Source: a virus
Taxonomy: Duplodnaviria > Caudoviricetes
Direction: 5' to 3' (one strand)
Length of the DNA stretch: 43,549 nucleotides
Virus record (IMG/VR): IMGVR_UViG_3300017766_005792
Coordinates: 1-43,549 of that record
In this document: positions 7,480 through 31,765 of the stretch, one piece after another
Layout: every line of letters starts with the position of its first letter
Numbering within the stretch: the first letter of the stretch is position 1
Notes under the pieces: model-generated
Seen by the model: the letters and a program-made list of their open reading frames with translations, nothing else
Databases searched by the model: none
Told to the model about the DNA's origin: nothing
Program-made: the position numbers and the translations under genes

Positions 7480-7688
7480 ATTTCTCCTGCTTGATAATTC
7501 GCCAGCATGTCATTGCGGTATTGCTTCCAGCACTCGGGGCACACGCCCTTGGGGCGTGGCTCGCCGGGTGACCACAGGTCAGGGACGGTGCAGTCTGGGT
7601 CGTCGCGCCCGCACAGCGTGATGAAGCTGTCGGTCAACTCGTAGCGCGCGTTGCCCCACGTCAGGCACTTGGTCTTGCGCTTGCTCAC
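7464..7688 (-). CDS. Small Cys-containing hypothetical protein (possible Zn finger)
   Basis: GTG start with SD GGAGG and GTGA overlap; TLCG...VCPEC. Confidence 0.65.
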   Translation of the reverse strand: MSKRKTKCLTWGNARYELTDSFITLCGRDDPDCTVPDLWSPGEPRPKGVCPECWKQYRNDMLANYQAGEICPTN

Positions 7689-7978
7689 AACGTTTCCTCC
7701 ACCTCCACGTTGTCGACAAGACGACCGCCCGCCCGGCGGATGTCCACATTCGCCGTGCCGCACATCAGCTTGACCAACAGGTTGATCAGGCGCGCAGTCT
7801 GGGCGTCATCGTCGGTCCACCAGATGCTCTTGTACCCGCCCTCGGGCAGCAACATGACCAACCACAGGCCGGGGAGGCGGTTGGCGTACTTGGCTGCGTT
7901 GAGCAGCTCGGTAGCTTCGTGAATGGTTTGCAGCCGCTGCTGTCCGATGGTCTCTGGCTGCTGGTCAATGTCGCTCAT
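7685..7978 (-). CDS. Hypothetical protein (97 aa)
   Basis: ATGA overlap; SD GGAG. Confidence 0.75.
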   Translation of the reverse strand: MSDIDQQPETIGQQRLQTIHEATELLNAAKYANRLPGLWLVMLLPEGGYKSIWWTDDDAQTARLINLLVKLMCGTANVDIRRAGGRLVDNVEVEETL

Positions 7979-8367
7979 ACCTTCTCCTTCTGCTCGAAGC
8001 TCTGTGCTTCAGTCAAAGTGCTTATCTGCCCGTCAGGGTGCAGGGTTATGGTTACGAGATTAATCTTTTCGTACCTACCCTTACGTTTAATGTGAATATT
8101 ACTGATCGTCCTCAGCGCCAGACCACGGTCATAGAAGGACATCGGATAAGACTCGAAGTCCTGCTCAAGGAAGTGAAATTCGCCGCTCGTCTCCCGCCCG
8201 CTGACAGTGATCATGTACAGATTAACCATTAGGACCTCGCAGCCTTCAATGTTGTCCTCCTCAGCGTACTGGCAGCCGACCGAGCACCACAGGCGCCCGT
8301 GCTCGTTGTGCGTGCTCATGAAGCGCTTGCCGCACCCGACGCACGCCACGTAGTAGAGGCTGGTCAT
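7975..8367 (-). CDS. Hypothetical protein with N-terminal CxxC...CSxxC zinc finger
   Basis: CVGCGKRF...WCSVGC; ATG at 8367 overlaps the upstream stop. Confidence 0.7.
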   Translation of the reverse strand: MTSLYYVACVGCGKRFMSTHNEHGRLWCSVGCQYAEEDNIEGCEVLMVNLYMITVSGRETSGEFHFLEQDFESYPMSFYDRGLALRTISNIHIKRKGRYEKINLVTITLHPDGQISTLTEAQSFEQKEKV

Positions 8368-8561
8368 CCTTCCTTGCCCTCCACGAGCAGCCATGCACGC
8401 ATGGCCCCCGAGTCACGCTTGTGTACGACGTACATGGCCTTGTGCTCGGGCCAGCCAAGGACGACGCAGTCCTCCTTGGGGACACCGGGCAGCTGCAGGC
8501 AGGTGGCCATCTGGTCGACGGGGATGGGCAGGTTCACGCGGACGTGGTGCGGTGCTTTCAT
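8364..8561 (-). CDS. Hypothetical protein (65 aa, MKAPHH...)
   Basis: ATGA overlaps; SD GAGGAG. Confidence 0.65.
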   Translation of the reverse strand: MKAPHHVRVNLPIPVDQMATCLQLPGVPKEDCVVLGWPEHKAMYVVHKRDSGAMRAWLLVEGKEG

Positions 8562-8926
8562 TTGGTGGTCTCCTCGCGCAGGCGGTGCAGGAACTTGCGG
8601 GCGATGTCCAAGGCTGAGGGGTACGTGACGTAGGTCAGCTTGAGCTTTTTCCACATCTCCCACTGCGCCAGCGTGAACTCCTTGTCCTTGGGGTCCAGTG
8701 CCTTGCTGGCCTCGACGATCATGTGGGCCAGTTGGTCCTCGTGCAGCGAGCAGGCTGCCTCGAAGGCAGCCGCGTCAGGGGCCACGAGGCTGCGGCTGCT
8801 CCTGCCGCCTGGCTTGACGCTCACGAGGTAGTGCCCCTCGGGCCAAGAGTCCCACTGCTCTCGCTCGCTCACGGGCACGTAGCGCACCCGCTTGCCGTCC
8901 ATCACCCTCTCGTACAGCGTAGTCAT
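8558..8926 (-). CDS. Hypothetical phage protein (122 aa)
   Basis: SD GAGG; GC3-biased codons; first gene after a promoter. Confidence 0.8.
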   Translation of the reverse strand: MTTLYERVMDGKRVRYVPVSEREQWDSWPEGHYLVSVKPGGRSSRSLVAPDAAAFEAACSLHEDQLAHMIVEASKALDPKDKEFTLAQWEMWKKLKLTYVTYPSALDIARKFLHRLREETTK

Positions 8927-8939
8927 GGTCGCCTCACTC

Positions 8940-8988
8940 AGTAAACGATCGCTTATTTAGCTCTGACGCTAGTAAACGATCGCTTACT
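8940..8988. promoter_or_regulatory. Duplicated imperfect palindrome AGTAAACGATCGCTTA(T/C)T, putative operator pair
   Basis: Identical 16-mers at 8940-8955 and 8971-8986, 31 bp apart, between the promoter and the start codon. Confidence 0.7.
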
Positions 8989-9012
8989 ACGTCAGCCGTC
9001 GCTTCACGAGTA

Positions 9013-9040
9013 AGTTTAGTGTTGTTTTTTCAGGATGCAA
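9013..9040 (-). promoter_or_regulatory. sigma70-type promoter TTGCAT-N16-TAAACT
   Basis: Hexamers read directly; lies immediately after a terminator. Confidence 0.6.
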
Positions 9041-9042
9041 GT

Positions 9043-9068
9043 AAAAAAGGGTGCCGCGAGCACCCTTT
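9043..9068 (-). terminator. Intrinsic terminator
   Basis: AAAGGGTGC-5 nt-GCACCC followed by TTTTTT on the minus strand. Confidence 0.8.
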
Positions 9069-9118
9069 CCGAGACGCCTTTCCCTAGTCACCCACCGCTC
9101 GCGGCGATGGGATCGCCC

Positions 9119-9532
9119 TCACTGTGAGGACTTCGGACCCAAACTTTCGGAGGAGGGGTCCGCATTCTCAGTATGCTTCAAGAGCCAGAGCTGGAACAAG
9201 AGACAGCACACCTCGTGAGCAAGGTGTGAGACTCCGGTCTCCGGGTCGTTGGCCTCCCCTTGCAGGCGAGCCACCCGGTGACGGAATCCAGCCGCCTCGT
9301 AGCGCTGCATGGCGTCGGGCACGTGCTTCCAGTTGTCGCGCTCGTACTTCTTCAGGCCGTAGGCCAGGACCTTGACGACTTCTTCGAGCGAGTCCCAGGG
9401 CAGCAGCGTGTAGTCCAGCTTGCCTGCGTCGAACTTGCGACCCTTTACCTCGGGCGGCTGAGGCTCTGCGTAGAACTCCTGCAGTACGGTCCGATAAAGC
9501 TCGGTCAGGTCTGGTCGTCCGTTGTACGTCAT
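9119..9532 (-). CDS. dATP/dGTP diphosphohydrolase domain protein (DUF5664-like)
   Basis: GRKFDAGKLDYTLLP...YGLKKYERDNW...DPETGVSHLAH; ATG at 9532 overlaps the upstream stop. Confidence 0.85.
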   Translation of the reverse strand: MTYNGRPDLTELYRTVLQEFYAEPQPPEVKGRKFDAGKLDYTLLPWDSLEEVVKVLAYGLKKYERDNWKHVPDAMQRYEAAGFRHRVARLQGEANDPETGVSHLAHEVCCLLFQLWLLKHTENADPSSESLGPKSSQ

Positions 9533-10398
9533 GGTTCCACCGACCAGTGAAAGGTGAGAGCCTTCTCCACTTCGCCGAACCCGAGGTGGCGCAGCATGCG
9601 CCAGCCACACCCCTTGGACTCAGGGTCATCTCCGAACTCGGACATGGAAGCGCCGACCGTCAGGGCGTTCATGGGCTCGAAGTAGTTCGTCCAAAAAGCC
9701 ACGTGCTCGAACGGCCCAAGGTGCCCCTCGTCCCACAGGGACTTGAGCTTGCCCATGAACTCCTCGGACACGTCCTCGCGCAGGTAGCTGTCGCGCGCAG
9801 CGCGGGCCACAGCGTAGTAGACGTCCGCCATCTTCGGGTCCGTGCCCTCGAAGTATGGAATGTGAAAGCCACGCGCGACCGGCGTGCTGCCGTTGATGGC
9901 CTCCTTGATGGCCACCGCCAACGCGCGCATCTCCGGCTGTACCTCGTGCTCGACGTCGCGCTGCCGGATCAGGTGCTGAAACGCCTCGACCGCGCCGGTC
10001 ATGGTGCAGCGCGTGATGAGAAAGGGCTCCAGGTAGCGGTTGGCGTGCTGCTTGTGGACGCCGAGCTCGCCCAGCTGCGCCACGAGACGCTTGGACGCCT
10101 CAAGGTGGGCCTCGATGAGGTCCAACGCCAGAGCGTTGTCGTACTCGCTCAATTCCTCCTTGGAGCCCATCCCAGGCTGGTTCTTGCTCAACTTCTCCGG
10201 GACGTAGAAAGCTCCGCCCTCCATGAGCTCAAGCTGCCGCTTGACCGGGATGGCCCGGCTGCTTGAGGTGCTCTTGCGGATGAGCCCGTAGGTCATCACC
10301 TGCGGGTGGATGAAGCGCGGGTAGTCGCAGGACAGCGTCAGGATGCGCCGCCCTTGGCAGATGGAATCAGCAGCAACACGAACTTTGATTACGCTCAT
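9529..10398 (-). CDS. thyX: Phage-type FAD-dependent thymidylate synthase (ThyX/Thy1)-like protein with atypical motif
   Basis: YPRFIH...SSSRAIPV, HKQHANRYLEPF, QPEMRALA and HLGPFEHVA match the phage Thy1 subfamily. Confidence 0.8.
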   Translation of the reverse strand: MSVIKVRVAADSICQGRRILTLSCDYPRFIHPQVMTYGLIRKSTSSSRAIPVKRQLELMEGGAFYVPEKLSKNQPGMGSKEELSEYDNALALDLIEAHLEASKRLVAQLGELGVHKQHANRYLEPFLITRCTMTGAVEAFQHLIRQRDVEHEVQPEMRALAVAIKEAINGSTPVARGFHIPYFEGTDPKMADVYYAVARAARDSYLREDVSEEFMGKLKSLWDEGHLGPFEHVAFWTNYFEPMNALTVGASMSEFGDDPESKGCGWRMLRHLGFGEVEKALTFHWSVEP

Positions 10399-10952
10399 TT
10401 CGGTATCCTTATGGAGGAGACGATCATAAGACGAGTTCCACCCCTCGGGGTGGTACGCTCTACCAGCTTGAAGTCGATGACGGACTTGAGCCTACCCGAG
10501 GACCTAGCACACTGCATGGTGGCGAACTTGCACCCGGCGGCATCGGCCAGCTCCCTGACAGTCATTCCCACCTTGGCGACTCGCGCGATCCTTTCGGGGT
10601 CGATGATGGGGCCAACCTTCACTTTGTAGCCGTAGTACCGGGCGCGGCGCTGCAGGTCTTTGGGTGTGACCCCAAACTTCTTGGCGATGCTCGCCAGGTT
10701 GGCGTACGAAGGAGTTGGCACCTTGGCCAAGGCCTTCTTGATGTTTGTCCTGCGCTTCCTTAGCGCATCGAAGTAGCGGCCGAGAAGTTCTGGGTAGTGT
10801 GTGCGGAGTCCACCGTGCAGCTTATCTCGTGTCAGATCCTCCATCGCGGCCCAGTTGTCGAACGGGATCGGGGCGTCGTAGCCGATCTTCAAGGACGCAA
10901 GGTGTTCCTCCATCTGAGGAACGAGGCGGTCGAGCACAGCCTTTTTAGTCAT
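10395..10952 (-). CDS. Putative DNA-binding protein, paralog B (two HTH-like segments)
   Basis: LASIAKKFGVTPKDL and GMTVRELADAAGC; aligns by eye with 10949..11497. Confidence 0.7.
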   Translation of the reverse strand: MTKKAVLDRLVPQMEEHLASLKIGYDAPIPFDNWAAMEDLTRDKLHGGLRTHYPELLGRYFDALRKRRTNIKKALAKVPTPSYANLASIAKKFGVTPKDLQRRARYYGYKVKVGPIIDPERIARVAKVGMTVRELADAAGCKFATMQCARSSGRLKSVIDFKLVERTTPRGGTRLMIVSSIRIPK

Positions 10953-11497
10953 TTCTTCCTCTTCAGTTTGACTATCACAAGTCGCTTCCTGCGACCTCGA
11001 GGAGTCTCCGTCCACCGCAGGTCGAACACTATCTTCCCATTGAACCGGTCGCGCGGGATCAGATTGGCTAGCGAGTGCTTTTTGTAGCCCGCTGCGTCAG
11101 CTAGCTCGTCTAGGGTCATGCCAAGTTGCGCGACCGCCAAGCACTTCCTGATGGATATTTTCTGCTTCCGGGTGGACGACGGGAGGCCCAAGCGCTGAGC
11201 TTTGTTGCGGACCGTCTTCTCCAAGGCGCCGAACCTATCGGCGATCTCCCTGATGTAGACGATGTCGTTGATACCTGCTTCTCGCAGGGCATCGTGAATG
11301 GCCTCGTGCCACGCCCTTGAGGCAGCGAAGTAGCGCTTCAAGATAGGTGCGTAGGGTTTTCTCCGCCCCCGTTCGAAGAAGTCTCGGTACGTCATGTCCG
11401 CCATCGCGGCCCAGTTATCCAAGCGAATGGGTGGATCGTCCGGGCCCTTCTGGTCGACCCATTCTGAGAGCTCCTGAATTACTTCTTCGAAGGTCAT
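10949..11497 (-). CDS. Putative DNA-binding protein, paralog A (two HTH-like segments)
   Basis: IREIADRFGALEKTVRNKA and GMTLDELADAAGY. Confidence 0.75.
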   Translation of the reverse strand: MTFEEVIQELSEWVDQKGPDDPPIRLDNWAAMADMTYRDFFERGRRKPYAPILKRYFAASRAWHEAIHDALREAGINDIVYIREIADRFGALEKTVRNKAQRLGLPSSTRKQKISIRKCLAVAQLGMTLDELADAAGYKKHSLANLIPRDRFNGKIVFDLRWTETPRGRRKRLVIVKLKRKK

Positions 11498-12300
11498 TTC
11501 TTCTCCAAGAGGCGACCTGTCAGCAGCGCGAGCTCGTGCAGGTTTGAGTATTTGAAGTTGATATGGCCGGAGCGACCGGTCGGTGCGACGCTGACCTCAG
11601 CCCCGAACCGCTCACCTAGCTTGCGTGAGATCAAGTCGAACAGGCTCTTGTACGGGCTCTCGCCTGCCAGCCTGTTCTCCTTGTGCTTCTTCTCTTTCGC
11701 ACCCTTCTTAGCCTGCCGGACCCACGCCTCGGCGTCGAGGGTCCCCATCCCCTTTAGCATCAGGGAGACGAGCTCGTTGCGAAGCGGGCCGTCGTCGATC
11801 GTCAGGCAGATTCGCGCTTGGCGTGCCGTGAGGTCGCCGCTGATGACCAGCCGCTGGTGCTCATCCGAAAGGGTAAGCAGTCGGAAGCTGTTGGAGACGT
11901 AGGGGGCTGACTTGCCTATCAGGTCAGCGATCTGCGACGGCGGGTACTGGTGCTCGTCGCGGAGTCGGCGCAGCGCCAGGGCTTCCTCGATAGGGTTCAG
12001 GTTGGACCGCTGCGCGTTCTCGATGACGGCCACCTCGAAGGCTGAGGTGTCGTCAAAGTCCCTAATGATGACAGGGACGTGCGTCAGCCCAGCCATCTTC
12101 GAGGCGCGCCACCGTCGCTCACCGGCCACGATTTCGAGCTTGGACCTGCGGCGCCTGACGAGAATCGGGAGCAGCACGCCCTTGCTGGCGATGGACTGAG
12201 AGAGGGCCTTGAGCTCCTCCTCGTCGAAGTGCTGCCGTGGCTGCGCCGGGTCTGGGTGCAGGTCATCTACGGGACAGGAGATAAGGATCGGCTCGGACAT
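11494..12300 (-). CDS. parB: ParB/Spo0J family protein
   Basis: QPRQHFDEEEL..L..SI...GVLLPILVR, IVAGERRWRA, ENAQRSNLNPIEEA, HTH and C-terminal dimerisation region. Confidence 0.95.
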   Translation of the reverse strand: MSEPILISCPVDDLHPDPAQPRQHFDEEELKALSQSIASKGVLLPILVRRRRSKLEIVAGERRWRASKMAGLTHVPVIIRDFDDTSAFEVAVIENAQRSNLNPIEEALALRRLRDEHQYPPSQIADLIGKSAPYVSNSFRLLTLSDEHQRLVISGDLTARQARICLTIDDGPLRNELVSLMLKGMGTLDAEAWVRQAKKGAKEKKHKENRLAGESPYKSLFDLISRKLGERFGAEVSVAPTGRSGHINFKYSNLHELALLTGRLLEKK

Positions 12301-12306
12301 GGGAGG

Positions 12307-12335
12307 ATCGTGCCCTCTTTCTAGTGGTCATGCAA
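12307..12335 (-). promoter_or_regulatory. Possible parB promoter TTGCAT-N17-CACGAT (leaderless)
   Basis: -10 ends 6 nt before the parB ATG; no SD visible. Confidence 0.4.
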
Positions 12336-12545
12336 GCTGAAACTGCAACCTGAAAACTTAGTTGCTGCCGTTGCAGATCTTTCCGCAATCCGAACAGCGC
12401 CAGAGGGGGCCGCTCTCTGTGGAGGGTCTGTACCTCTGTAAAGTATTACGCTTGCAATGCTCGCAGTAGTGAACTCGCTCTCCGTCGTCACCGAACTTGA
12501 ATGAATGCGACTTGTACACGGTAGACCTCCAGATAAACCTAACGG

Positions 12546-12574
12546 TTGCGAAATCTTTCTCACTATCCTAGTGT
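12546..12574 (+). promoter_or_regulatory. Possible promoter TTGCGA-N17-TAGTGT (leaderless)
   Basis: -10 ends 7 nt before ATG 12582; no SD visible. Confidence 0.45.
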
Positions 12575-12581
12575 GTTCGCC

Positions 12582-13370
12582 ATGTCTAAGCGCAGCAAGG
12601 CCAGGAAGTCAGGCGAGTATGTAGGTGGAAGGCCTTGGCCTGCTGTCTGCCCCAAGTGCAGATACTGCGGAGGCTCTCCGCCCAAGCTTTTCTACCGCGC
12701 CCGGGGCCTTTGTAACATCTGCTACAAGGAAATAAAGAACACAGACGAGATCGATGAGTACGAGCCACTGCCTGAGGTTTGCTCGGATATCAGCCTGCGA
12801 TCACTGCAAAAGAGCCCCAAGAAATGGCTGCAGAAGGAGATGGGTAGGAGCCACGCCGACAAATATCCGGACGACAGGGTCTTGGAAGAAGCCATGCGCG
12901 TGTTCCAGCTGGCCGTGAGCCGCTGGTACGGTGATGAGACTCCGCCCGTTACAAGCTACGACCCAGTTCCCGTCGAGGACGTCATCTGGAATAATCCAGA
13001 GGCTGACCCGGGCCCGATGTCCATTGAGGACGCCATCGTCCTGAAGAACGCGACCAAGTCCAAGCTCGCCGTGAGGCGCCGCAACGCAGCCCTTTCCTTC
13101 TGGAAAGAGGTTGGGCTAGCAGCCCATAGCGCCGTCAGGAGCTACAACCCGACCATCCGTAGGCCCAAGATCTCCTGCCTCGGAGACTCCGTAACGGCCA
13201 CTTGGGGCATCGGGACTCTGTACCTTTCGGTTACATCGATGGCCGGCGACGTTTTTGTCGTCCTGGAGCGAGAAGACCGGGTTCTTCTGGAAGAAGATTT
13301 CAGGCCAAGCCGGATAGGCTACATTCTGAATGCAGCCTCCAACTTTCAGAAGGTAGACCGGAGTCGTTGA
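12582..13370 (+). CDS. Hypothetical protein with N-terminal Cys-rich Zn finger
   Basis: CPKCRYC...ARGLCNICY; ATG at 12582 preferred over the TTG at 12546. Confidence 0.75.
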   Translation: MSKRSKARKSGEYVGGRPWPAVCPKCRYCGGSPPKLFYRARGLCNICYKEIKNTDEIDEYEPLPEVCSDISLRSLQKSPKKWLQKEMGRSHADKYPDDRVLEEAMRVFQLAVSRWYGDETPPVTSYDPVPVEDVIWNNPEADPGPMSIEDAIVLKNATKSKLAVRRRNAALSFWKEVGLAAHSAVRSYNPTIRRPKISCLGDSVTATWGIGTLYLSVTSMAGDVFVVLEREDRVLLEEDFRPSRIGYILNAASNFQKVDRSR

Positions 13371-13401
13371 CTCCTACGAACAGGAAAGGCAGATCTGCAC
13401 C

Positions 13402-15927
13402 ATGGCAAAGCGAGTACCGATCGGAACCGAGTCCACCCGCGCTGACAACTCCGTCTGGAAGAAGCTCGATACGGGCTGGAAACAGCTTCAGGACGGGGAT
13501 GATACCAGCCGCTCCAAGTTCAAGGTCACGGGCGAGGCCGACCCTAGCAGGGACGTCGAAAAGGGCCTTTGGGCCAGCATGCAGGAGAAGTACGACCTCG
13601 ACGGGCGAGTCCCGGACGAGTCGGTCCCTCCCGAGCATGTTGAGATCGACTCCGAGGGGGATATCGACTCCAAGCCTGTTCTGAAGTGGAAGAACGCCGC
13701 CGGCAAGGTGATGAAGTCCTACACCCGCGCCTTCCACACCCAGCGCGCCTACGCGCTCCACAAGGAGTGCGGCAAGTATCACTCTAAGATCATGAAGGCC
13801 ATGGATACCCTTGAGGGCATGATGAACAAGCAGGACGCGGGTGCCGCGACTGCTTACGCCTCCATGATTACGGGCCACCGCCCCAGTGTCTTCATGTCCC
13901 TCACCCCCGACAAGATGCGGGTCTACCGGGACAACAAGGACGCCAAGAAGTCGCACGCGCTCGACTACTTCATCGAGAAGGCTGACACGCGCGACGCAAT
14001 GCACCCGAACCGCTTCCACTTCATGGTGGAGCACCCTTCGCAGGGCGCCTTTATCGCCAACGTCTACGACCCAGCCCTCTCGGATTACGCCAACGGCGGC
14101 GGCTCGTTCGCTGAGCCTACCGAGGCATTCGCCACCGTCGGGCTGCAGGACGTGAACTTCAAGGTCCTTCGCGCCCACGCCAACATGCGCATGGCTGCGG
14201 ACGCCATGTCCAAGAGCGCACCGGTGAGGATGGATGACGTGGACTTCCATCAGGGAATGTCCAAGGTCAACCAAGTCATCATGAACGTCTCGGACGCCGT
14301 CGCTCGCAACTACGGCCACGGTGCTGCTCCGAACGGAATGGTCTATCTGCCCGTCCCCATGTCGGTCGCGGCTGTGGACGAGGCTGGTGGTAGCAAATAC
14401 TGGCCTGATACCTTCAAGAAGCGTGAGCCTTACGTCGAAAATCGAGGACTTGACATGGACGACATCACTTCTGAGCTCGAGGCCATGGGTGAGGACGTTG
14501 CAGAAGATGAGGGTGCCGACACCGCTGAGGAGGATGTCGAGAAGGACATCACTGATGGCGATCAGGACATCATGAAGTCGGAGTACGCTGGCGTCAATTT
14601 TACTCCTCCTGCGGGGGTTCGCGCGGCGTGTCGCGCTGGTCTGAAGCTCAAGGAGGAGGGTCACGGCGGTAAGGGTCTCGTTGCCGCCACTGTTGCGTGG
14701 GCTCGACGCCTCGCCGCTGGTCAGAAGATCTCGCCGGCCAAGGCCCGCAAGATGAACGCTTGGTTCGCTCGCCACTCGGTCGGCAGCAGCTCTCGTACGC
14801 TCGGCGACAAGACCTCGCCGGCTTGGGTGGCTTGGCAGCTCTGGGGTGGCAACGCCGGCAAGGCGTGGTCGGCCAAGCTCGTGCGCCAGATGGAGTCGCG
14901 CGAGGCGAAGAAGTCCATGCTCGATGACATCAAGATCGAGCCGATCGAGAAGCCCGAGTTCTCGGTTTACCTTTCCTCCAAGTACCTCAAGGACGTCAGC
15001 CCGGAGATTCTCAAGAGTCTCTACGAGCACGTGAACAAGGAGCAGCCATGCGATACCTCTCCCAGCGAGGAAAAGATCTCCTCGAGCGAGCCCTCTCCTA
15101 CCCCCTCCCCGAGCCCGATCGAAAAGTCGATCTCGACGATGACGACTGCGGAAGTGAGCTCGAGGACTGCTTCCCCCTCCCTCGCGCCTTCGCCCAGCCC
15201 GGCAACATGCGAAAAGCCCCCCTCCCAGGGCCCCGCGCATCTGCTGGCCGAGCCCAAAGTCCAGCAGGTGCTGGCAGCCAGCGTTCTCGCCAGCTCGCGC
15301 GGGACAATCCCGCCGCAGTCAGTCGTTGAGGCTCTGCGCTGCGCTCTCCTGAGTGACCTCGATGGGATGGTGGCGGCGCTTTCGAAGGCCGGCGCTACCC
15401 CGGGCCCGCAGGCTGCTCCCGAGGGCTCTGTCTCGCGTTACGCGGACGGTACGGTCGTCGAGAAGCGCGGCGGTAAGTGGCAGGAGGTCAAGACCGACAA
15501 GGGTCGACCTGACGCTGACAGACCAGGTGCCGGTGGTGGTAAGAAGTCCGACCCGAAAACCAAGCGCCGCTCGGCCAAGAAGCTCCTCTCGGTCTACCGT
15601 CAGAAGCTTGACACCCTGAGCCGTCAGGGTGGGTCGAAGGGTGAGATCGCTGCGCTCAAGACCAAGATCAAGACCCTGAAGCAGAAGATGCGCGGCATGG
15701 CCAAGGCTGCCGACCCGTTCGCTGCTTGGGAGAAGGATCGCGTCCGCGAGTGCGTCCGCAAGTCGGCCACCTACTGCAAGTACCTCGGGTACAATAACCC
15801 CGGCCAGCTTCTGTATGCCGTCGCCGCAGGTGACACTCCCGCTGACGTCACCGTCGCTGTGAAGGCCGCTACCAAGTACCTCGGCGAGAAGTTCGGCCTC
15901 GTGCTCGAGAAGGAGCTCGCAAAGTGA
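13402..15927 (+). CDS. 841-aa multi-domain putative head-associated protein with divergent topoisomerase IB-like N-terminal domain
   Basis: SD GGAAAGG; strong GC3 bias; overlaps the portal start; TopIB-like motif order; a second module PPAGVRAA...WQLWGGNAG that I recall from phage head-gene neighbourhoods. Confidence 0.75.
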   Translation: MAKRVPIGTESTRADNSVWKKLDTGWKQLQDGDDTSRSKFKVTGEADPSRDVEKGLWASMQEKYDLDGRVPDESVPPEHVEIDSEGDIDSKPVLKWKNAAGKVMKSYTRAFHTQRAYALHKECGKYHSKIMKAMDTLEGMMNKQDAGAATAYASMITGHRPSVFMSLTPDKMRVYRDNKDAKKSHALDYFIEKADTRDAMHPNRFHFMVEHPSQGAFIANVYDPALSDYANGGGSFAEPTEAFATVGLQDVNFKVLRAHANMRMAADAMSKSAPVRMDDVDFHQGMSKVNQVIMNVSDAVARNYGHGAAPNGMVYLPVPMSVAAVDEAGGSKYWPDTFKKREPYVENRGLDMDDITSELEAMGEDVAEDEGADTAEEDVEKDITDGDQDIMKSEYAGVNFTPPAGVRAACRAGLKLKEEGHGGKGLVAATVAWARRLAAGQKISPAKARKMNAWFARHSVGSSSRTLGDKTSPAWVAWQLWGGNAGKAWSAKLVRQMESREAKKSMLDDIKIEPIEKPEFSVYLSSKYLKDVSPEILKSLYEHVNKEQPCDTSPSEEKISSSEPSPTPSPSPIEKSISTMTTAEVSSRTASPSLAPSPSPATCEKPPSQGPAHLLAEPKVQQVLAASVLASSRGTIPPQSVVEALRCALLSDLDGMVAALSKAGATPGPQAAPEGSVSRYADGTVVEKRGGKWQEVKTDKGRPDADRPGAGGGKKSDPKTKRRSAKKLLSVYRQKLDTLSRQGGSKGEIAALKTKIKTLKQKMRGMAKAADPFAAWEKDRVRECVRKSATYCKYLGYNNPGQLLYAVAAGDTPADVTVAVKAATKYLGEKFGLVLEKELAK

Positions 15928-17414
15928 AGGAGCAACCCACCAAGTCCACCTCTACCGAGGTGAAGAAGGTCGGACGTCGGTGGGTTGCGGTCACTCCCCC
16001 GCGATCCGCTAACGCGGACTTCATCAACGACGCTCACCTGATGGCCCGCACCGGGTCGACGGGTGACTACCACTACGGCACGCTCAGCATCACGTACGAC
16101 ATGCTCGAGCAGATGGCGAACGTGCCGCAGATCGCAGGCATCCATCAGACCCGAGCGAATCAGGGTACTGATTGGGCTCGTCCGCAGGAAAATCCCGTGG
16201 ACATCGGCTGGCGCCTCCGCATGGAAAAGCGTCAGGCGCTGCCGCTACGTAAGGATCGCATCGCCATCGAGAAGGCCTCAGAGGTCATCGCTCGCGCTGG
16301 TGCCGAGTGGCTGCCGGGAGGATTTGAGCAGTTCCTCCGCGTCATCATCCCGGACTCGCTCACCTACGATCAGGTCAACTTCGAGATCTTGAAGGAGCGC
16401 GACGGGACCCCGTACGCCTTCATCCCGGTCGACCCTAAGACTATCCGTCGCGCCATCCCGACGCAGGAGATTTATGGTGGGGAGCCTGCTCCCCGCTACG
16501 GTCGTTGGGACTTTAACGAAGGCTTCGTGCAGGTCATGACCTCGGGCGAGATCGTGAATTACTACGAGCCTGGGACCATGGCTTGGGGTATTCGCCGCCC
16601 CCGCTCGAACATCAAGTTCTCCGGCTACGGTCACCCCGAGCTCGAGCAGCTGGCGTCTATCATCACCGGCCTCGTGAACGCTCAGACCTTTAATCAGGTC
16701 AACTTCACGACCGGCATCCACGCCCACACGGCCCTCGTCCTTAAGTCCGCTTGGGACCAGAACCGATTTAACGAGTTCAAGCGAGAAATCCAGACCTCCA
16801 TGGCCGGCGGACGGAATTTCAAGCGCATCCCGATTATTCAGCTCTCGAATCAGCTGCAGGAAGAGCTCCAAGCCATCGCTCTCGGAAAATCGAACTCCGA
16901 GATGGAATTCGCCGAGTGGATTAATTGGCTCCTGAAGGTCTCCTGCTCGCTCTACGCCATCGACCCGTCGGAGATGGGCTACGTCTTCGGCGCGGAGGGT
17001 TCGAAGTCGAATTTCATCAACACCTCCCCCATGGACCGAATTCTTCAGTCCAAGGAGCGTGGCCTTCGTCCCCTGCTTCGCGCCATCCAGTCTTGGATTG
17101 ACTACTACGTCATCAAGCCGACGTGGCCGCAGCTGAAGTTCGAGTTCGCTGGCTTCGATGCGAGCAACGAGCGCGAAAAGCACGACATGGACATGGCGGC
17201 GGTCACGACTTATCGCACGCCGAACGAGCTCCGCGTGGAGCGTGGTCTCGAGCCTCTCCCCACGCCTATTGCAGACCTGCCCCTGAACGCATTTTTCTCG
17301 CAGGCCGCGCAGAAGATTCTCGAAAACGACGTCGCTCCGCCGCAGTTCGACATCGACACGGTTGGTGCTTTTGTTGACGGTCGTAGACTTCCGCCGTTGA
17401 CAAAGCCCGCGTGA
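15924..17414 (+). CDS. Portal protein (SPO1/Herelleviridae-like)
   Basis: DSLTYDQVNFE, FIPVDPKTIR, GYGHPELE, EMEFAEWINWL..CSLYAIDPSEMG, SKERGLRPLL and TPNELR. Confidence 0.93.
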   Translation: MKEQPTKSTSTEVKKVGRRWVAVTPPRSANADFINDAHLMARTGSTGDYHYGTLSITYDMLEQMANVPQIAGIHQTRANQGTDWARPQENPVDIGWRLRMEKRQALPLRKDRIAIEKASEVIARAGAEWLPGGFEQFLRVIIPDSLTYDQVNFEILKERDGTPYAFIPVDPKTIRRAIPTQEIYGGEPAPRYGRWDFNEGFVQVMTSGEIVNYYEPGTMAWGIRRPRSNIKFSGYGHPELEQLASIITGLVNAQTFNQVNFTTGIHAHTALVLKSAWDQNRFNEFKREIQTSMAGGRNFKRIPIIQLSNQLQEELQAIALGKSNSEMEFAEWINWLLKVSCSLYAIDPSEMGYVFGAEGSKSNFINTSPMDRILQSKERGLRPLLRAIQSWIDYYVIKPTWPQLKFEFAGFDASNEREKHDMDMAAVTTYRTPNELRVERGLEPLPTPIADLPLNAFFSQAAQKILENDVAPPQFDIDTVGAFVDGRRLPPLTKPA

Positions 17415-17460: not shown

Positions 17461-18171
17461 ATGTCTTCGTACGTAGCACTCCATTCTTCAGGTGATTTTT
17501 TGGCTTGGCTCCCGGCCGATATTACGGTTTCGGAGCCAATTACCAAGTCGGGTGAGGCCGGTGAGCCTCGTCTGCTTGCTCCCATTAGCGGCATCGCCTC
17601 GAGCGAAACCGCTGATGCGGACGAGGACGAGATCGACCAAGCCGGGCTCGATTGGAATTTTTGCCTGAAGAAGGGCATTTTTACTTACGAGCACCCGGTC
17701 GACATCGCGCGCCTCGCCGGCTACCCCGAGAAAGTTGAGCAGGTTCGCCTGAGCAGCGGGGCCCTCGCCACTCGAGTTAGCGGGCAGTTGTACCTCAACC
17801 GGCCGTTCGGCAAGTTGGTGTACGACACGCAGAAGGCCATGGCAGAGGCCGGTGGCCGGCGCACCCTCGGATTTTCTATCGAGGGTCGTGTCATGCCGGG
17901 TGGTCGTAAGGGCAAACGCGTTACTAAGGCGCAGGTTCTGTCTATTGCGATTAGTCCTGTTCCGAAAAATCCAGACACGTGGATGGATATTGCAGCCTCG
18001 ATGTTCAATCGTGGCTATGCCGCTGGTGACATGGCTAAGGCCATTGCGACAGTGGACGCAAATTCTACACTTCTGAACAAGGAACAAGTCATCAACCGAC
18101 TGGTCAAAGAGTTTCAACACCTGAATTGGAAGCAGGCTGAGAAGCTCGCAGATGTAATCATGGCTGGCTGA
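17461..18171 (+). CDS. Prohead protease
   Basis: GIASSE..DADEDEIDQAGLD...YEH, LGFSIEG and AISPVPKNPDT; lies between portal and capsid. Confidence 0.9.
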   Translation: MSSYVALHSSGDFLAWLPADITVSEPITKSGEAGEPRLLAPISGIASSETADADEDEIDQAGLDWNFCLKKGIFTYEHPVDIARLAGYPEKVEQVRLSSGALATRVSGQLYLNRPFGKLVYDTQKAMAEAGGRRTLGFSIEGRVMPGGRKGKRVTKAQVLSIAISPVPKNPDTWMDIAASMFNRGYAAGDMAKAIATVDANSTLLNKEQVINRLVKEFQHLNWKQAEKLADVIMAG

Positions 18172-18199: not shown

Positions 18200-18841
18200 A
18201 TGAAAGCAAGCGAGCGACTCGCGAAGCTTCGGGACCTGAAGGTCCCCGAGGCGCAGGCTATGGATCTTGTGAAGTCCGCCATTTCGAGCGGCGACGTCGA
18301 GAACGATCTCGAGGAGTCCCCCAGCATCGACGTGAAGAAGCTCGAGGGTATCCTCGAGGAGCTTCGCAAGTCGCAGGGCGAGACGGTTGCGGCGCCTGCT
18401 GAGGTTCCCGCCGATTTCAAGGGCCTGCTCGACGCCACGATCGGTGAGGTCCGGGCCGAGACCTCGAAGCTCTCGAAGGCGCTCGTCCACATCGGCGAGA
18501 TGGTCTCGGAGCTGTCGGTTCACCTGACCTCTCTCGACCAGCGCAACGCTGAGATCGCCAAGTCGCTTGGTGGTCCCGTGGCCCGCCCGGCCGCCATCGC
18601 CCCCCAGTCGGTGATCGGCGCCGTGACCAGCGCTCCCTCGCCCCATGACCAGCTCGCCCCCGGCGCCTCGCCTGACGACGTTGTTCGTCTCCGCAAGAGC
18701 CTCGTTGGCAAGCTGACCGCCGAACTCCGTGGTGGGGCTTCGGACGACGCTCGTCGTCTCGAGCTTGCTACTGCTCTCGCCAACGCCGCGTACACCAATG
18801 ACCCCGCCGCCTTCGCCAAGAGCGTCGGCATCAGCCTGTAA
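18200..18841 (+). CDS. Probable scaffolding protein
   Basis: Helical/coiled-coil, many KS/KA motifs, between protease and capsid; SD AAGGAG. Confidence 0.7.
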   Translation: MKASERLAKLRDLKVPEAQAMDLVKSAISSGDVENDLEESPSIDVKKLEGILEELRKSQGETVAAPAEVPADFKGLLDATIGEVRAETSKLSKALVHIGEMVSELSVHLTSLDQRNAEIAKSLGGPVARPAAIAPQSVIGAVTSAPSPHDQLAPGASPDDVVRLRKSLVGKLTAELRGGASDDARRLELATALANAAYTNDPAAFAKSVGISL

Positions 18842-18852
18842 GGAGACATCAC

Positions 18853-20400
18853 ATGTTCGATCTCGAGTCGCTCAAGGCCGACGCCGTTAACGGTGGCGGA
18901 CTCATTGCTAAGATGGCGGAGGCCCTCACCGAGGCTCAGGTTGGTAACCTCGAGCCGATGGCGAAGTCGGGTCTCTTCAACGCGGACCTCCAGCGCGCCG
19001 GCGTCAGCCTCTCGAAGGCTGAGGGCGTGAACTACCCGCTGCAGGGCGTTCCGTTCGGTTCGCAGGACCTGCCGCAGGGCCAGTTCGCTCCGCTGGTTCC
19101 CCAGTCGATCGACAACGTCCTCACCTCGATCACCTACAGCGACAAGCACCTGAAGCTCTTCAAGATGCTTCCGCGCAAGTCGTGGGGCTCGACGGTGTAC
19201 GAGTACGCTCAGATCGTGACGAACGGTTCTGAGGGTCTCGACGGCTTCGTCGGCGAGGGCTCGGTCGGTGGTCTCAGCGAGGCGTCGTACCGCCGCGCCG
19301 TGGCGCAGATCAAGTACCTGACCGAGTACTTCGAGGTCACCGACGTGGCCACGATGATCACGGGTACGCTCGCCAACCAGAACCTCCTCTCGATGCGTAC
19401 GCAGCAGGCCACCCTGCACCTCGCGCGTAAGATCGAGGAGCAGATCCTCTGGGCTGACAGCTCGCTCTCGCCCAACCACTGGGACGGTATCCTCACCCAG
19501 GTGAAGAAGGAGGCCCCGGCCAACTTCCTCAACTCGGCCGGCGCTCGCGTCGATGCGGACCGCCTCCAGCAGCTCGCTACCCTCATTGAGCAGGGACCGC
19601 GCTGGGGTACTCCCGAAGTTTGCTTCGTCACGGCCGAGCACTACCGTAACCTCGCGCAGGAGCTCGACCTCTACGCCCGCGCCAAGTTCAACGAGGGCAC
19701 CAAGAACTTCCGCCTCGGCGCGGATGGCATCGAGTTCGTCACGCCGTTCGGTAACGTCGTGAAGCTCATGCCGCTGTTCTTCCTCGATCGCGGTCGTAAG
19801 ACCCCCATCCCGACCTCGGTTGGCGATGGCGCTCCTGAGGCGATCATCCCCTCGCTTACCCGCGTTGCGGCCCCCGTTGACGGGTCCGGCTTCACGGCGG
19901 CGGACGTCGGTCGCGACTACTACTTCGCCTTCGAGATCGTCGGCGATGAGGGTACGCTCCCGACGGGCATCATCGGCCCCGTCACCATCCAGGCCGCCGG
20001 CGACGCCGTTCGGTTTGACATGGCTGACTCTGCGGTGCCGAAGCAGGGCTCGAAGTCGATCCGTTACGTCCGCGTGTTCGCCGCCTCGGTTGCGAACGGT
20101 GCTGACGCTCCGGACATCTCGCGCTTCCGCCCGGCTGGCTCGTTCGCTCGTAACGCTGCCAACGCTGGCAACACCCGCGCGAACATCCTCCTCGACGTCC
20201 GTCCGGACTCGGCCCCGATCATCATCTCGGAGTGGAATTCCAGCGTCGTGCAGATGCTCGAGCTCCTGCCGATGATGCGTCGTCCGCTGCCCGTGCCGCG
20301 CGCCCTGAAGCAGCAGTTCGCTCTGCTCTACTTCGCGGCCCCGGTTGTGATGCAGCCGAACAAGATGATCGTCGACATGAACGTCGAGTCGCGTACCTGA
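18853..20400 (+). CDS. Major capsid protein
   Basis: PLVPQSIDNVL..ITYSD..LKLFK, STVYEY, LARKIEEQILWAD and WDGI resemble SPO1/phage K-type capsids; strongest codon bias in the window. Confidence 0.92.
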   Translation: MFDLESLKADAVNGGGLIAKMAEALTEAQVGNLEPMAKSGLFNADLQRAGVSLSKAEGVNYPLQGVPFGSQDLPQGQFAPLVPQSIDNVLTSITYSDKHLKLFKMLPRKSWGSTVYEYAQIVTNGSEGLDGFVGEGSVGGLSEASYRRAVAQIKYLTEYFEVTDVATMITGTLANQNLLSMRTQQATLHLARKIEEQILWADSSLSPNHWDGILTQVKKEAPANFLNSAGARVDADRLQQLATLIEQGPRWGTPEVCFVTAEHYRNLAQELDLYARAKFNEGTKNFRLGADGIEFVTPFGNVVKLMPLFFLDRGRKTPIPTSVGDGAPEAIIPSLTRVAAPVDGSGFTAADVGRDYYFAFEIVGDEGTLPTGIIGPVTIQAAGDAVRFDMADSAVPKQGSKSIRYVRVFAASVANGADAPDISRFRPAGSFARNAANAGNTRANILLDVRPDSAPIIISEWNSSVVQMLELLPMMRRPLPVPRALKQQFALLYFAAPVVMQPNKMIVDMNVESRT

Positions 20401-27947: not shown

Positions 27948-28161
27948 AAAGCCTCCGTCAGCCTCGTCTGACCCTAATCGACCCCTGTGGCCCAAGTGTC
28001 AGCTCTTGGAGTGGTATCTTTTGTCCATGGACGACGAACGATACAAGTCGTTGTACAAGGGCGGTACTATTGAAGGCACAGATGTTCCGTCCTCGGGAGA
28101 TCCAGTTCTGGACGCTGAGATAGCAGCCTTCTACAAGGGTCAGGGAAATGTCAGGTCCTAA
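27871..28161 (+). CDS. +1-frame extension of the tail chaperone (GT-like frameshift product)
   Basis: Stop-free +1 frame from 27832 to TAA 28159-28161 with no early start: FSETEDRVKEARR...SGDPVLDAEIAAFYKGQGNVRS. Confidence 0.65.
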   Translation, partial: FSETEDRVKEARRQLDWPISRKTLTEKPPSASSDPNRPLWPKCQLLEWYLLSMDDERYKSLYKGGTIEGTDVPSSGDPVLDAEIAAFYKGQGNVRS

Positions 28162-31100
28162 GAACGAGAAGGTCGTAACAACCATTGAGACCAACGTCAC
28201 CGTCACGGGACGGGGCGCGGTCGAGGCTACTACAAAGGCTGTCCAGGGGCTGGCATCGTCCCTTGGGCAGCTTAACGACCGACTCAACGATATTGAGGAG
28301 ACCGTAAAACAGCGGTTTTCTCAAAATCGAACTGACGCCAACCAGAGCGGCCAGCGACTAAACCGTCAGAGGACGACGGTACGCCAAGACATCCCACTTC
28401 CCGATGAACTTCAGAAGGCTCTCGGGAAGCGGGGTGGTGTAGAGGCGCAGGTCGTAATTCAAGAGCGTCTTCCTATCGACGCCCGGGTGGACGCCGAGAA
28501 GCGGTCCCTCATGCGTACCTTCCGCTCCGGCCTCTCGGCCGAAGCCTTGGGTACGACCGGCCTCTACTCCCAGAAGAGCGCCGGGTATCAGCGAGAGGAA
28601 GACCTTAGGGCTCTCGCGCGCAGCTCCGATCCCTTCGAGGCTGCCACGGCCATTCCGACTCTGCAGCTCATGCAGAAGAACCGCCGACTGCTGACTCGCG
28701 TCGCGCAGGGGGTTGGTGGCGAGGTAGAGCAGCGGGCTTATTTCAAAGTCAGGGGTCTCGCCTCACGAGGAAGAATAGAGGCAGCCATTGTAGAGGCCAA
28801 GGTCGCAGCCGACCAGCAGGCCGTGGCGGACGAGGCTCTTCGCAATGAGCAGAAGAACGTCAGGCTCATGCGCGAAGAGGAGCGCAACCAAGCCACGTTT
28901 GGCTCTATCCGAGATCGGATGGCTGCCCTTCAAGCAGTCGGAGTCGCCCCGGGGGCGATGAAGTCTGTTGAAAAGGCCCTCGCTGCGGCAGAGGCCGCGC
29001 ACCCGACGCTTGCCTATCCGCAGATAGCCGCCGCCAAGCAGTCTCTCGAGCCACTCGAAGAGGCGGCTTCGATTTTCGCGAAGACCAACGAGCAGCTGCA
29101 GGATTTTGAGCGCCGCCTTGGCAGCCTCGGGAAAGCTTTGGACTCCACGGCCTCGTCGGCCATCCGCGCGCAGCTTTCTGCTGCTCAGGGTGTCATGCCG
29201 AGCACGCCTGTGCGCGGTCGAACCGTCTCGGTCGGTGGCGTTGACGTAAACAAGGCCTCCTACAGGGACCTGCTCTCTATCCCTGGCGTCAGCCCAAGTG
29301 TGGCCGCTGGCATCGTCACCTACCGCCAGAGCATCGGCGGATTTAATACCCCAGAGGAATTCCTCTCCAAGTTCGACGAGGTCGGGCAGGCGCAGGCTCG
29401 CGTAGACGCCATCAACGTGCCTAGCAGGCCCAGCTACCCGACACCGCCCAGCCGCCTACCTACAGGAAGCAACGTCATCCCGCTGATCATGGACTTGATA
29501 AAGAAGTCCCCGCTCGGATCAGCGACAGGCTTCGACAAGACTCGAGTCGAAGCTTTGGAGAAGTTCCTGTCCTCCCGGGAAGGAAGATTTCCGGTCAGGA
29601 GCATGGAGACGGTTCTGGGTATGTCACCCGACGACTTCATGGAGGCCTTCCCAAGAATTGCAGCCGACAAAGGTAAGACGCGCGGTTACGTCCAGAGCTT
29701 GGTGCCTACCGTCCAGAGACTCCTGAAAGACGAACTCGCAGGGGCTAACAATGCCTTTCAGGCCCAGGTTCAGACTTTCAACAAGGACAAGGCGGAGTAC
29801 GACAAGAAGTCTGCCGAGAAGGCGGCCGCTACCGCTCAGCTTGAGGCTGCGAAGAAGACTGCCGAGCAGCGTGAGGGTGCCCCTAGGTCAGTGCAGGACC
29901 TGGACGAGGCTGCCCAAAAGGTGCAGGGCTCAGAGGACTTGATCGCCCGAGAGGAGTCTCGCGTTCGAGAGCAGACGGCAAGGCTCTACAGTGAAACTAA
30001 GGAGATGCGCGCGTCGGCTCGACGCAGCGAGCTCGAAAAGCGTTTCAAGACGAGTCCTCAAGGAAAAGACGCCGTCGCTCGAATGCTTGCCGCTGAGGAG
30101 GGCTTTAAGTCAGCCACCGAAAGTGGTGCGACTCTTGAGGCGGAACTCCGTCAGGCTGAGATGCTCAAGGCCCAGGCTGAGCTCGAGGGGATCGAGAAGG
30201 AGATGAACAGGGGTCGCTATCAGCGACTCTCTCAGGTGCGCGCGTTGTCCCACTTCGCCGGCGGCATCTCCTCCGCCGCCTCGAATATCGTCTCTCGCGA
30301 TATTCGAGGAATAGGTCAGACCTCGATGGCTATCCCGCAGGCAGGCTTCAACCTGATGCGAGACCTCGCCGTCCCGGGGGTCGTAAATAACGGACTCTTC
30401 AGCGCATCCGGAGCCCTGTTCGGAGCTGGCCTTCTGGGTGCAGGGGCCTTCGCCGTAGGCCAAGCTGCCTACGGCAGAGGGTCTGCTGTTCTAGACCGCG
30501 CAGCCGCCGGCATCAACGAGACCATCCCGCAGTTCGAGGCCGTCTTTGCCAGGAACCCTGAGCTCCTAAGCGGTGCTTCTAATCGCGAGGCCGTGCTCGC
30601 GTACATGGAAACCGTGGGCCATGAGGACTACGCTGACGCAGCCACGGCAGCCATCATGGAATCGTCTTCCATGGAGGAAGCTCTGTCGAAGGCTAGAGAT
30701 CGCAACGCCCCCTCAGCCATCTCAAGCGGGTATGATAGTACTGCGAAACTAATCCGTGACGCCTACGCTGACGCGAGCGGGCCTCGAGGAGGGCTCGCGG
30801 AGCGCTCGCGACGCCGCATGATCGACCGTATCTTCTCGGAGTACGGTCCCGGCGGTACCGTGTTTGAAGGCAACGTCACAGATGCTGACGTGGCGACGGC
30901 CCTTTCTGCTTCCGGCGGCCGGGGTCTTGGCTCTGAATTCGTGAGGACGACCGGTCCGCAGTCTCAGCTGCCGACTGACGTTAGAAACGCAGCAGCCTTG
31001 GCGGCGTACGCTAACCGCAGAAATCTTTCCGTTGCCTCCGTCGCGCAGCTGAGCTCCTTGAATCCGCGGTTCGGTATTACCGACACGATGGGCGTTCACG

Positions 31101-31765
31101 GACTCGTCGGAATGAACGGCTTTGGATTTACGGCAGGGGCTCGAGACGATTTTACGCGCCAAATCTCAGGCGAGCTCATGCAGGCCGCCATGGGCGGCGG
31201 AACTCCTGAGATGGTTCAGCGCAACCGCTTTTTCCAAGGAGCGGTCGAGGCAGGCGGTAATAAGGAGCGTATGGCGAGCGCCTACGCGCGCTCGATAAAT
31301 GAGATGGGTGACCTACGACGCGGTATGTTCGCAGGAGCTCGAGGGTTCGGGGCCAACCTTCAGCTGGTGAAGGCCCTCTCCGTCGGCGGCTCTCTTGAGA
31401 AGGCCAACGAACTTCTTGCGAACGAGGCCCCTGGCTTCACCGCCATGGACCGGGAGCGCGAGGCCTATAAGGCAGCGCCGGACCTTTATCGCTTCGAGCA
31501 GCTTAACGCAGGTATGTCCGCTAAGGACATCCAAGCCAAGATCGCTAGCTTCACGACCGGCGGCGCCGAGACGAAGGATGAGCCTGAGACGCCCGAGTCC
31601 TTTATGCTCAAGCGGGTTGAGGCTCTCAGGAAGAAAGGTGAGGCCGAGGTCGCCAAGGGGACTAAGGAACAGGCCGACATGGCCTCGGTCGCTGCTTCCT
31701 TTGATGTAGCGACGGCCAAGTTCGCCTCGGCTGTTGATCGCTTTGCCTATGGCATCGTAAGGTGA
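28148..31765 (+). CDS. Tape measure protein with internal helix-hairpin-helix domain
   Basis: 1205 aa, Ala/Gly-rich and helical, follows the chaperones; hydrophobic stretch near aa 750-775. Confidence 0.8.
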   Translation: MSGPKNEKVVTTIETNVTVTGRGAVEATTKAVQGLASSLGQLNDRLNDIEETVKQRFSQNRTDANQSGQRLNRQRTTVRQDIPLPDELQKALGKRGGVEAQVVIQERLPIDARVDAEKRSLMRTFRSGLSAEALGTTGLYSQKSAGYQREEDLRALARSSDPFEAATAIPTLQLMQKNRRLLTRVAQGVGGEVEQRAYFKVRGLASRGRIEAAIVEAKVAADQQAVADEALRNEQKNVRLMREEERNQATFGSIRDRMAALQAVGVAPGAMKSVEKALAAAEAAHPTLAYPQIAAAKQSLEPLEEAASIFAKTNEQLQDFERRLGSLGKALDSTASSAIRAQLSAAQGVMPSTPVRGRTVSVGGVDVNKASYRDLLSIPGVSPSVAAGIVTYRQSIGGFNTPEEFLSKFDEVGQAQARVDAINVPSRPSYPTPPSRLPTGSNVIPLIMDLIKKSPLGSATGFDKTRVEALEKFLSSREGRFPVRSMETVLGMSPDDFMEAFPRIAADKGKTRGYVQSLVPTVQRLLKDELAGANNAFQAQVQTFNKDKAEYDKKSAEKAAATAQLEAAKKTAEQREGAPRSVQDLDEAAQKVQGSEDLIAREESRVREQTARLYSETKEMRASARRSELEKRFKTSPQGKDAVARMLAAEEGFKSATESGATLEAELRQAEMLKAQAELEGIEKEMNRGRYQRLSQVRALSHFAGGISSAASNIVSRDIRGIGQTSMAIPQAGFNLMRDLAVPGVVNNGLFSASGALFGAGLLGAGAFAVGQAAYGRGSAVLDRAAAGINETIPQFEAVFARNPELLSGASNREAVLAYMETVGHEDYADAATAAIMESSSMEEALSKARDRNAPSAISSGYDSTAKLIRDAYADASGPRGGLAERSRRRMIDRIFSEYGPGGTVFEGNVTDADVATALSASGGRGLGSEFVRTTGPQSQLPTDVRNAAALAAYANRRNLSVASVAQLSSLNPRFGITDTMGVHGLVGMNGFGFTAGARDDFTRQISGELMQAAMGGGTPEMVQRNRFFQGAVEAGGNKERMASAYARSINEMGDLRRGMFAGARGFGANLQLVKALSVGGSLEKANELLANEAPGFTAMDREREAYKAAPDLYRFEQLNAGMSAKDIQAKIASFTTGGAETKDEPETPESFMLKRVEALRKKGEAEVAKGTKEQADMASVAASFDVATAKFASAVDRFAYGIVR

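Follow-up and report, generated by a model that had tools for sequence, protein, structure and literature searches.

A probably inactive topoisomerase IB fold in a phage pre-portal protein with predicted prohead-protease sites

What is a topoisomerase-like domain doing in a phage gene that stands directly before the portal gene? The question is raised by virus record IMGVR_UViG_3300017766_005792, the 43,549 bases of which (classed as a provirus, 63% complete) are the whole stretch analyzed here, referred to below as the window. Its genes form a myophage set, with head genes and a contractile tail whose sheath and baseplate genes follow the capsid gene. A preliminary description had proposed a divergent type IB topoisomerase (TopIB) domain in the 841-residue pre-portal protein (13402..15927, + strand; full-length relatives are 47–84% identical), the stop codon of which overlaps the GTG start of the portal gene, and had considered the domain active, altered, or reduced to a DNA clamp. 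Our answer, which we consider probable on balance, is that a catalytically dead TopIB fold forms the conserved core of a head-internal polyprotein that is processed by the prohead protease, and acts there as a carrier.

Direct sequence searches of Pfam, PHROGs, NCBIfam, and the PDB returned no TopIB match to the domain, and Pfam Topoisom_I (PF01028) matched none of 11 close and none of 21 distant members of the family. When a profile of the 11 close relatives was searched against 1.84 billion proteins, it returned 23 matches below 1e-10, every one from the same family, and 13 weaker matches (E 1.6e-9 to 8.7e-4): 11 Pfam Topoisom_I proteins, one fragment of the family, and one unrelated protein. 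One of these 11 TopIBs matches Deinococcus TopIB with an E value of 2e-14. When the family profile (19 rows) was aligned with the 11 Topoisom_I proteins by hhalign, the pair scored 99.85% (E 1.2e-30) over 259 columns. The weak matches had been found through the N-terminal 100 residues, and the C-terminal half was therefore checked separately; alone it scored 96.8% (E 2.9e-10), compared with 0.1–0.7% for four unrelated alignments. By sequence, the closest relatives are the intact phage TopIBs (P0034, P0036–P0045, and L045), with which the domain shares the N-lobe motif G-D-x-D...W...G...Y-T-x-x-F.

Structure comparison leads to the same assignment. An AlphaFold model for which family rows were the sole input (predicted local distance difference test, pLDDT, 88.8) matched variola and Deinococcus TopIB; the first 22 Foldseek ranks were all type IB topoisomerases, the best being 2h7f (E 1.9e-4, template modeling score 0.48). 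The top VIA match was 3m4a (Z 12.3, root-mean-square deviation 3.9, 185 residues aligned). The 28 VIA chains with Z of at least 5 are without exception members of the TopIB, recombinase, or protelomerase superfamily; the first unrelated row after them scores 3.8. A search of a viral structure library also agrees with a TopIB fold. An ESM Atlas search with the domain of the window returned nothing; with relative P0015 the listed matches were TopIB clusters at 0.84–0.89, which we treat as a lead only. Within the superfamily, XerH (Z 9.1) is level with the lower TopIB rows of the VIA comparison (9.2–9.9), and 3m4a leads; Foldseek and sequence comparison favor TopIB over recombinases. A tyrosine recombinase or integrase (the preliminary description had spoken of a topoisomerase/tyrosine-recombinase fold) was rejected: the domain lacks His II (H-x-x-R) and the Glu or Asp three residues past Arg I, the window having K254 and V163 at these positions, with His at 254 in 5 of 38 relatives (residue list from Table 1 of PMC2943603). 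Thus, judged from alignments and the model, residues 57–345 (13570..14436, + strand) are homologous to phage TopIB, with its predicted two-lobe fold of N-lobe and catalytic core. The domain is slightly wider than the 13610–14380 first proposed, and the motifs then quoted in TopIB order all lie in the single frame of 13402–15927 (+). An opposite-strand open reading frame at 13300–15240 was taken to be a GC-rich shadow frame. Among cultured phages (50,697 records), the domain produced chance-level matches only, and an intact phage TopIB produced one match.

Does the fold still work as an enzyme? The poxvirus catalytic pentad is R130, K167, R223, H265, and Y274 (PMC2943603, Table 1). The same paper describes this Lys as the general acid of poxvirus TopIB and reports that in Cre the Tyr and this Lys alone are indispensable and that His is no substitute for the Lys. 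In the window, four of the five positions are occupied as in an active enzyme, by R160 (13876..13881, together with H159, which replaces the Leu of the intact TGLR), R257 (14170..14178, together with H259), and H306 and Y315 (14317..14346), corresponding to poxvirus Arg130, Arg223, His265, and Tyr274; all four are invariant among the 11 closest sequences. The His–Tyr spacing, first thought to be shorter than usual, is 9, the same as that of poxvirus H265–Y274 (PMC2943603, Table 1) and of all 11 intact phage TopIBs. The absence of the Lys of the FxGK motif was seen correctly: Gly-Lys (the Lys167 position) is replaced by H211-P212 (14032..14037), and the hairpin contains no Lys or Arg at all. 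A sequencing error at this site is ruled out, as relatives and strains have identical residues here; where the strains differ, at 14034 and 14037, third codon positions only are affected.

The wider family departs further from the active site. Residues were counted over 86 family rows, 9 of which were dropped for not covering all five anchor positions, and the remaining 77 were reduced to 38 at less than 90% identity; one row, P0018, is misaligned at 207–216. The Lys position holds P in 18, A in 12, R in 5, and Q, D, and K in one each. The first Arg is kept in 15 of the 38, and three more have R one place earlier; the second Arg is present in 34 and the His in 37. At the Tyr position, there are 26 Y, 10 F, and 2 H, the Phe being found in the sister branch of the window's own group (support 97/91) and in other branches as well. 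All four Arg, Arg, His, and Tyr residues occur together in 8 of 38 rows, including that of the window. Moreover, the five family rows that were compared with intact TopIBs all lack a 13-residue loop that follows the first Arg. The domain has a net charge of −3 and an isoelectric point of 6.5, compared with medians of +15 and 9.7 for the 11 intact TopIBs; its N-lobe is acidic (5.2). Requiring a basic residue in 8 or more of 12 intact TopIBs selects 19 columns; 6 of them are still basic in the window, and 14 are basic in no more than 6 of the 38 relatives. By this sequence comparison, the basic DNA-binding surface of TopIB is largely lost.

These losses are not those of a gene in decay. The ratio of nonsynonymous to synonymous substitution rates (dN/dS) of the domain is 0.07–0.09 in five of five pairs, compared with 0.03–0.06 for the portal and 0.29–0.42 for the C-terminal third of the protein. 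Values below 0.1 indicate strong purifying selection and rule out a decaying pseudogene. In an unrooted tree, a long branch with support 100/100 separates the 38 family rows from 12 intact rows, which makes a single origin of the dead family likely. Since the Lys, the loop, and the charge are lost, and the Tyr and first Arg vary among relatives, the domain is probably inactive and likely represents a conserved pseudo-enzyme rather than a working topoisomerase. Compared with poxvirus and bacterial TopIBs (2h7f, 3igc, 1a41, 2f4q, 3m4a; PF01028), it shares the two-lobe fold and the order and spacing of the Arg, Arg, His, and Tyr; unlike them, it lacks the general-acid Lys, has one loop deleted and a new one inserted, has a net charge near zero, belongs to a family in which the Tyr and first Arg vary, and lies within a head polyprotein.

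Of the three options first considered, "altered" thus fits best. That the domain is a topoisomerase, active or slow, that travels in the virion in the manner of poxviruses, possibly a slow covalent trap on DNA, appears very unlikely to us. The four catalytic residues at normal spacing speak for it, as do the intact TopIBs in related head modules (L045), but the hairpin offers neither Lys nor Arg, the Tyr gives way to Phe in the sister lineage and elsewhere, the loop behind the first Arg has been deleted, the charge is gone, and a predicted protease site lies within the core, at variance with the L045 domain, which has no internal motif. Vaccinia H6R is listed among known virion enzymes (PMC1540416). 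The analogy with poxviruses, in which the packaged enzyme relaxes DNA for early transcription, fits the intact head-module TopIBs of related phages, but not the pre-portal protein.

The charge bears equally on the idea of a DNA clamp, in which the lobes of the dead enzyme would close on DNA in the head or after ejection, organizing or shielding the genome or its portal-near end. Both lobes and the hinge are retained; Y107, R257, and H306 are near-invariant in the family; and a clamp would be compatible with packaging and processing. There is also a precedent in SPbeta MrpR, a tyrosine-recombinase fold that has lost catalysis and binds DNA (PMC10516654). MrpR belongs to the same superfamily and likewise reuses a fold without its catalysis (8a0a; Z 5.9, root-mean-square deviation 4.0, 153 residues aligned), but, as described there, it originated from a recombinase and is a repressor that binds DNA, whereas the pre-portal domain would derive from TopIB and lies in a head module. 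The acidic N-lobe, the missing 13-residue loop, and above all the loss of basic columns and the net charge of −3 rather than +15 weaken the clamp, to which we would give a minor chance.

A different reading starts from what has been gained. H159 (33 of 38) and H211 (37 of 38) stand where 12 of 12 intact TopIBs have an invariant Leu and Gly, respectively, and H259 is present in 33 of the 38. Together with H306, these residues lie at or beside catalytic positions in the sequence, and their conservation exceeds that of the Tyr and of the first Arg, so the old active site could have been rebuilt around R257 as a His-rich metal or ligand site, whether a metal store, a nuclease, or a phosphodiesterase. 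The proximity of the four is judged from sequence positions only, none is strictly invariant by automatic count, P0031 lacks two of them, and the family is generally rich in His (median 17.5 per domain vs 4). Such a site seems doubtful to us, and we would be no more confident of a combined scheme in which this clade turned a virion-carried TopIB into a core head protein with both a new His-based metal or catalytic site and a protease-cut slot for swappable enzymes.

Part of the evidence that the dead fold is a processed carrier is a short motif. The prohead proteases of phages T4 and SPN3US use one cutting motif for the capsid leader, the scaffold, and internal proteins alike (PMC5694885). In the window, [LIVM]-x-K-[SAG] occurs 11 times in the pre-portal protein, compared with 4.2 expected, and 5 times, compared with 1.1, in the likely scaffold (213 residues; 18200..18841, +), which lies between the prohead protease (phrog_1028; 17461..18171, +), the presumed processing enzyme, and the major capsid gene (phrog_752; 18853..20400, +). 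The capsid leader contains MAKS and ends in LSKA. With a slightly wider pattern, 28 proteins of the window were tested; the pre-portal protein (p 0.002), a 1205-residue protein (0.004), the scaffold (0.006), and ParB (0.046) were enriched, and the rest were not. The motif is thus common to the pre-portal protein, the scaffold, and the capsid leader, from which we infer that it is the site of the prohead protease and that the pre-portal protein resides within the prohead when this matures. The virion location suggested in the preliminary description gains support from gene context.

The pattern extends beyond the window. In 24 family proteins, the motif was counted 203 times, compared with 70.6 ± 8.0 expected, and of 14 loci, some of them closely related, 13 have a scaffold enriched for it and 12 an enriched pre-portal protein (L014, p 0.15). 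At one locus, L016, the capsid leader site is ITRS, and both the scaffold (6 vs 1.1) and the pre-portal protein (11 vs 3.8) use R in place of K. Here the inferred cut follows Lys, or Arg in that one phage, unlike that of the T4 and SPN3US proteases, which cut after Glu; the likeness lies in the use of one motif across capsid leader, scaffold, and internal or ejection proteins (PMC5694885, PMC7411985). Variants of the motif, hydrophobic-x-Q-S in P0022 and hydrophobic-x-R-S in P0017, P0020, and L016, suggest proteases of differing specificity in one branch. Capsid proteins of SPO1/A511-like phages are reportedly cleaved between Lys and Ser, for which a literature search gave no confirmation. As a separate observation, the 1205-residue protein, a tail-region product (28148–31765, +) with a helix-hairpin-helix at residues 362–407 and 14 motifs vs 6.6 (p 0.004), is possibly a second protease-processed cargo.

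One of these predicted sites lies inside the TopIB fold, in a feature that the preliminary description missed, as it did the passenger inserts of relatives. An inserted flexible loop at residues ~178–203 (13933..14010, +) sits just before the altered hairpin, contains IEKA at residues 191–194, and is modeled with a pLDDT below 50 at residues 185–195. Of the 38 rows, 35 have the motif in the corresponding loop (of the other three, two are without the loop and one has Q for K), compared with 19.5% of random 25-residue windows, a rough control given that the loops are unequal in length. In 8 of the 38 the loop holds an insert of more than 120 residues (five ferritin-like, two pyrophosphatases of the InPase type, and one unnamed), and all eight are flanked by the motif; in other relatives InPase stands before or after the TopIB-fold domain. 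The loop of the window has no passenger, and its copy of the protein has no recognizable active enzyme. It was also noticed that in 6 of 11 intact phage TopIBs (P0034, P0036, P0038, P0040, P0041, P0043) the catalytic Lys lies within V/I-G-K-S, which matches the predicted protease motif; speculatively, this overlap could be the reason for the loss of the Lys in this clade.

The motif-flanked folded enzymes of relatives are easier to understand as proteins that are retained and delivered, which speaks against a protein that is not packaged at all, whether a late cytoplasmic helper of assembly or packaging or one that, like a scaffold, is degraded completely. That the place in the virion comes from context only, that scaffolds have the same motif and are destroyed (PMC5694885), and that the upstream 274-residue gene might encode a partner acting outside the head all speak for such a protein, which we nevertheless find hardly credible.

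A close parallel to a processed carrier is found in the polyvalent proteins of phages (Iyer et al. 2017, PMC5512222), which are multi-domain products of late genes, probably packaged and released by proteolysis, and include InPase domains; a PBECR domain without activity in Mu's MuF protein provides a precedent for dead cargo (PMC5512222). Of the features of that class, the variable architecture is found here, as ferritin, InPase, phrog_2859, and unnamed inserts differ among relatives, and so is the place among the virion genes of a portal-terminase phage (19 of 19 loci). Unlike polyvalent proteins with a built-in metallopeptidase, the pre-portal protein would be processed by the prohead protease and accommodate passengers inside a host fold; no MPTase or MuF domain, a common though not universal component of that class, was matched in it in Pfam, PHROGs, or NCBIfam, where remote forms could escape detection. 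The main text of PMC5512222 contains "topoisomerase" once, in a reference title, and no mention of ferritin; neither TopIB nor ferritin cargo is named there.

Gene order ties the family to one group of phages. The portal lies directly downstream of the domain gene in 19 of 19 viral loci (18 contigs). A search based on the portal gave 60 loci, 23 of which have at least 4.3 kb upstream; 9 of these have both the pre-portal gene and the 274-residue gene, and 14 have neither, so the two genes mark one clade. At locus L045, where the portal is 44% identical to that of the window, an intact TopIB is found in a 1718-residue protein encoded directly after the portal (7503–12656). The intact domain has motifs on both flanks and none inside; after it comes a short acidic peptide similar to those that follow P0036, P0039, P0042, and P0045. 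The intact phage head-module TopIBs (P0034, P0036–P0045, L045) thus resemble the pre-portal domain in N-lobe motif, in head-gene setting (L045), and in a similar leader that precedes the TopIB of P0044, but they retain all five catalytic residues and are basic.

On the carrier reading, the protein would be made alongside the portal and enter the prohead by means of its leader or its second domain. The protease would then cut after hydrophobic-x-Lys and before Ser, Ala, or Gly, which would separate the modules and leave the TopIB fold nicked at its loop. The same cuts in relatives would set free passengers in or beside the loop, such as the Dps-like ferritin and the phage-type pyrophosphatase, for delivery to the host. 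The fold itself would act as an anchor or carrier in the structure, touching DNA weakly if at all, and would descend from an intact head-cargo TopIB like that found after the related portal in L045.

Several points weigh against this account. The cleavage motif was derived from the sequences themselves, and the 11 intact-TopIB proteins also exceed chance for it (50 vs 31.6 ± 5.5). The joint switch from K to R was seen at the single locus L016, and the kinship among the 14 loci and the roughness of the loop control count here as well. The copy in the window keeps four of the five catalytic residues, so that the domain may retain low residual activity, and a plain carrier role does not account for the conserved new histidines H159, H211, and H259. 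Finally, packaging, cutting, and the loss of activity are deductions, and the anchor role is conjectural.

The pre-portal protein has several further parts. The N-terminal leader (13402..13491, +), with the motif P-x-G-T...R-A-D...W-K-K...W-K-Q matched by regular expression in 24 of 38 relatives, recurs at residues 672–696 and may serve in head targeting. An acidic linker (14443..14577, +) that ends in IMKS precedes the second domain (residues 395–502; 14584..14907, +), which matches phrog_2859, a family of unknown function, and is modeled with a pLDDT of 87.9; its fold had no clear match (best Z 5.4; no Foldseek match below 0.001). Elsewhere phrog_2859 stands alone in head modules, is fused to the portal C-terminus, or is N-terminal on a Mu-like protease; this small helical domain moves among head genes (L010, L055–L060, L063, L068–L071, L076). 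The faster-evolving remainder (15034..15924, +) comprises a Ser/Thr/Pro-rich linker, the second leader copy, a basic helical hairpin, and a C-terminal helical part. The conserved upstream gene of 274 residues (12546..13370, +), which travels with the domain, encodes two CxxC-like motifs and has no family match. The portal (15924..17414, +) matches PF04860 and phrog_12; a complex prediction of the domain with the portal and zinc scored 0.00 in two runs and carries no weight either way. In another locus (L032:5616-8309), the portal is interrupted by an intein with a LAGLIDADG domain.

Elsewhere in the window, genes for ParB, two D5-like helix-turn-helix paralogs, and a ThyX-type thymidylate synthase (9529–12300, −) diverge from the head operon, and a 1112-residue tail-region protein (31769–35107, +) has an FHA domain at residues 774–828. 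A longer sequence, L025 (83,881 bases), contains the window identically, so the element or its surroundings reach beyond the 43.5-kb record. No promoter-like site above chance was found on the coding strand. Among public runs, the sequence is present nearly completely in a freshwater metagenome, which may itself be its source, and no RNA holder was listed; genome scans for a host gave no portal match and one capsid gene, which is unaccompanied by the TopIB-fold domain.

The open full-text literature that was searched yielded no account of a TopIB family that has lost catalysis, nor of TopIB as cargo of phage heads. If the rebuilt His site were real, this clade would have endowed a TopIB fold with new chemistry alongside a natural cassette for loading capsids. 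If the carrier reading is true, the family traces a path from a packaged enzyme to a structural part of the virion, the intact form of which persists in related phages, and it warns against calling such proteins active on four of five residues. A motif that is common to capsid leader and scaffold and switches jointly in them would offer a way to recognize head cargo from sequence, and the loop would be a natural insertion site where phages place whole enzymes for loading into the capsid.

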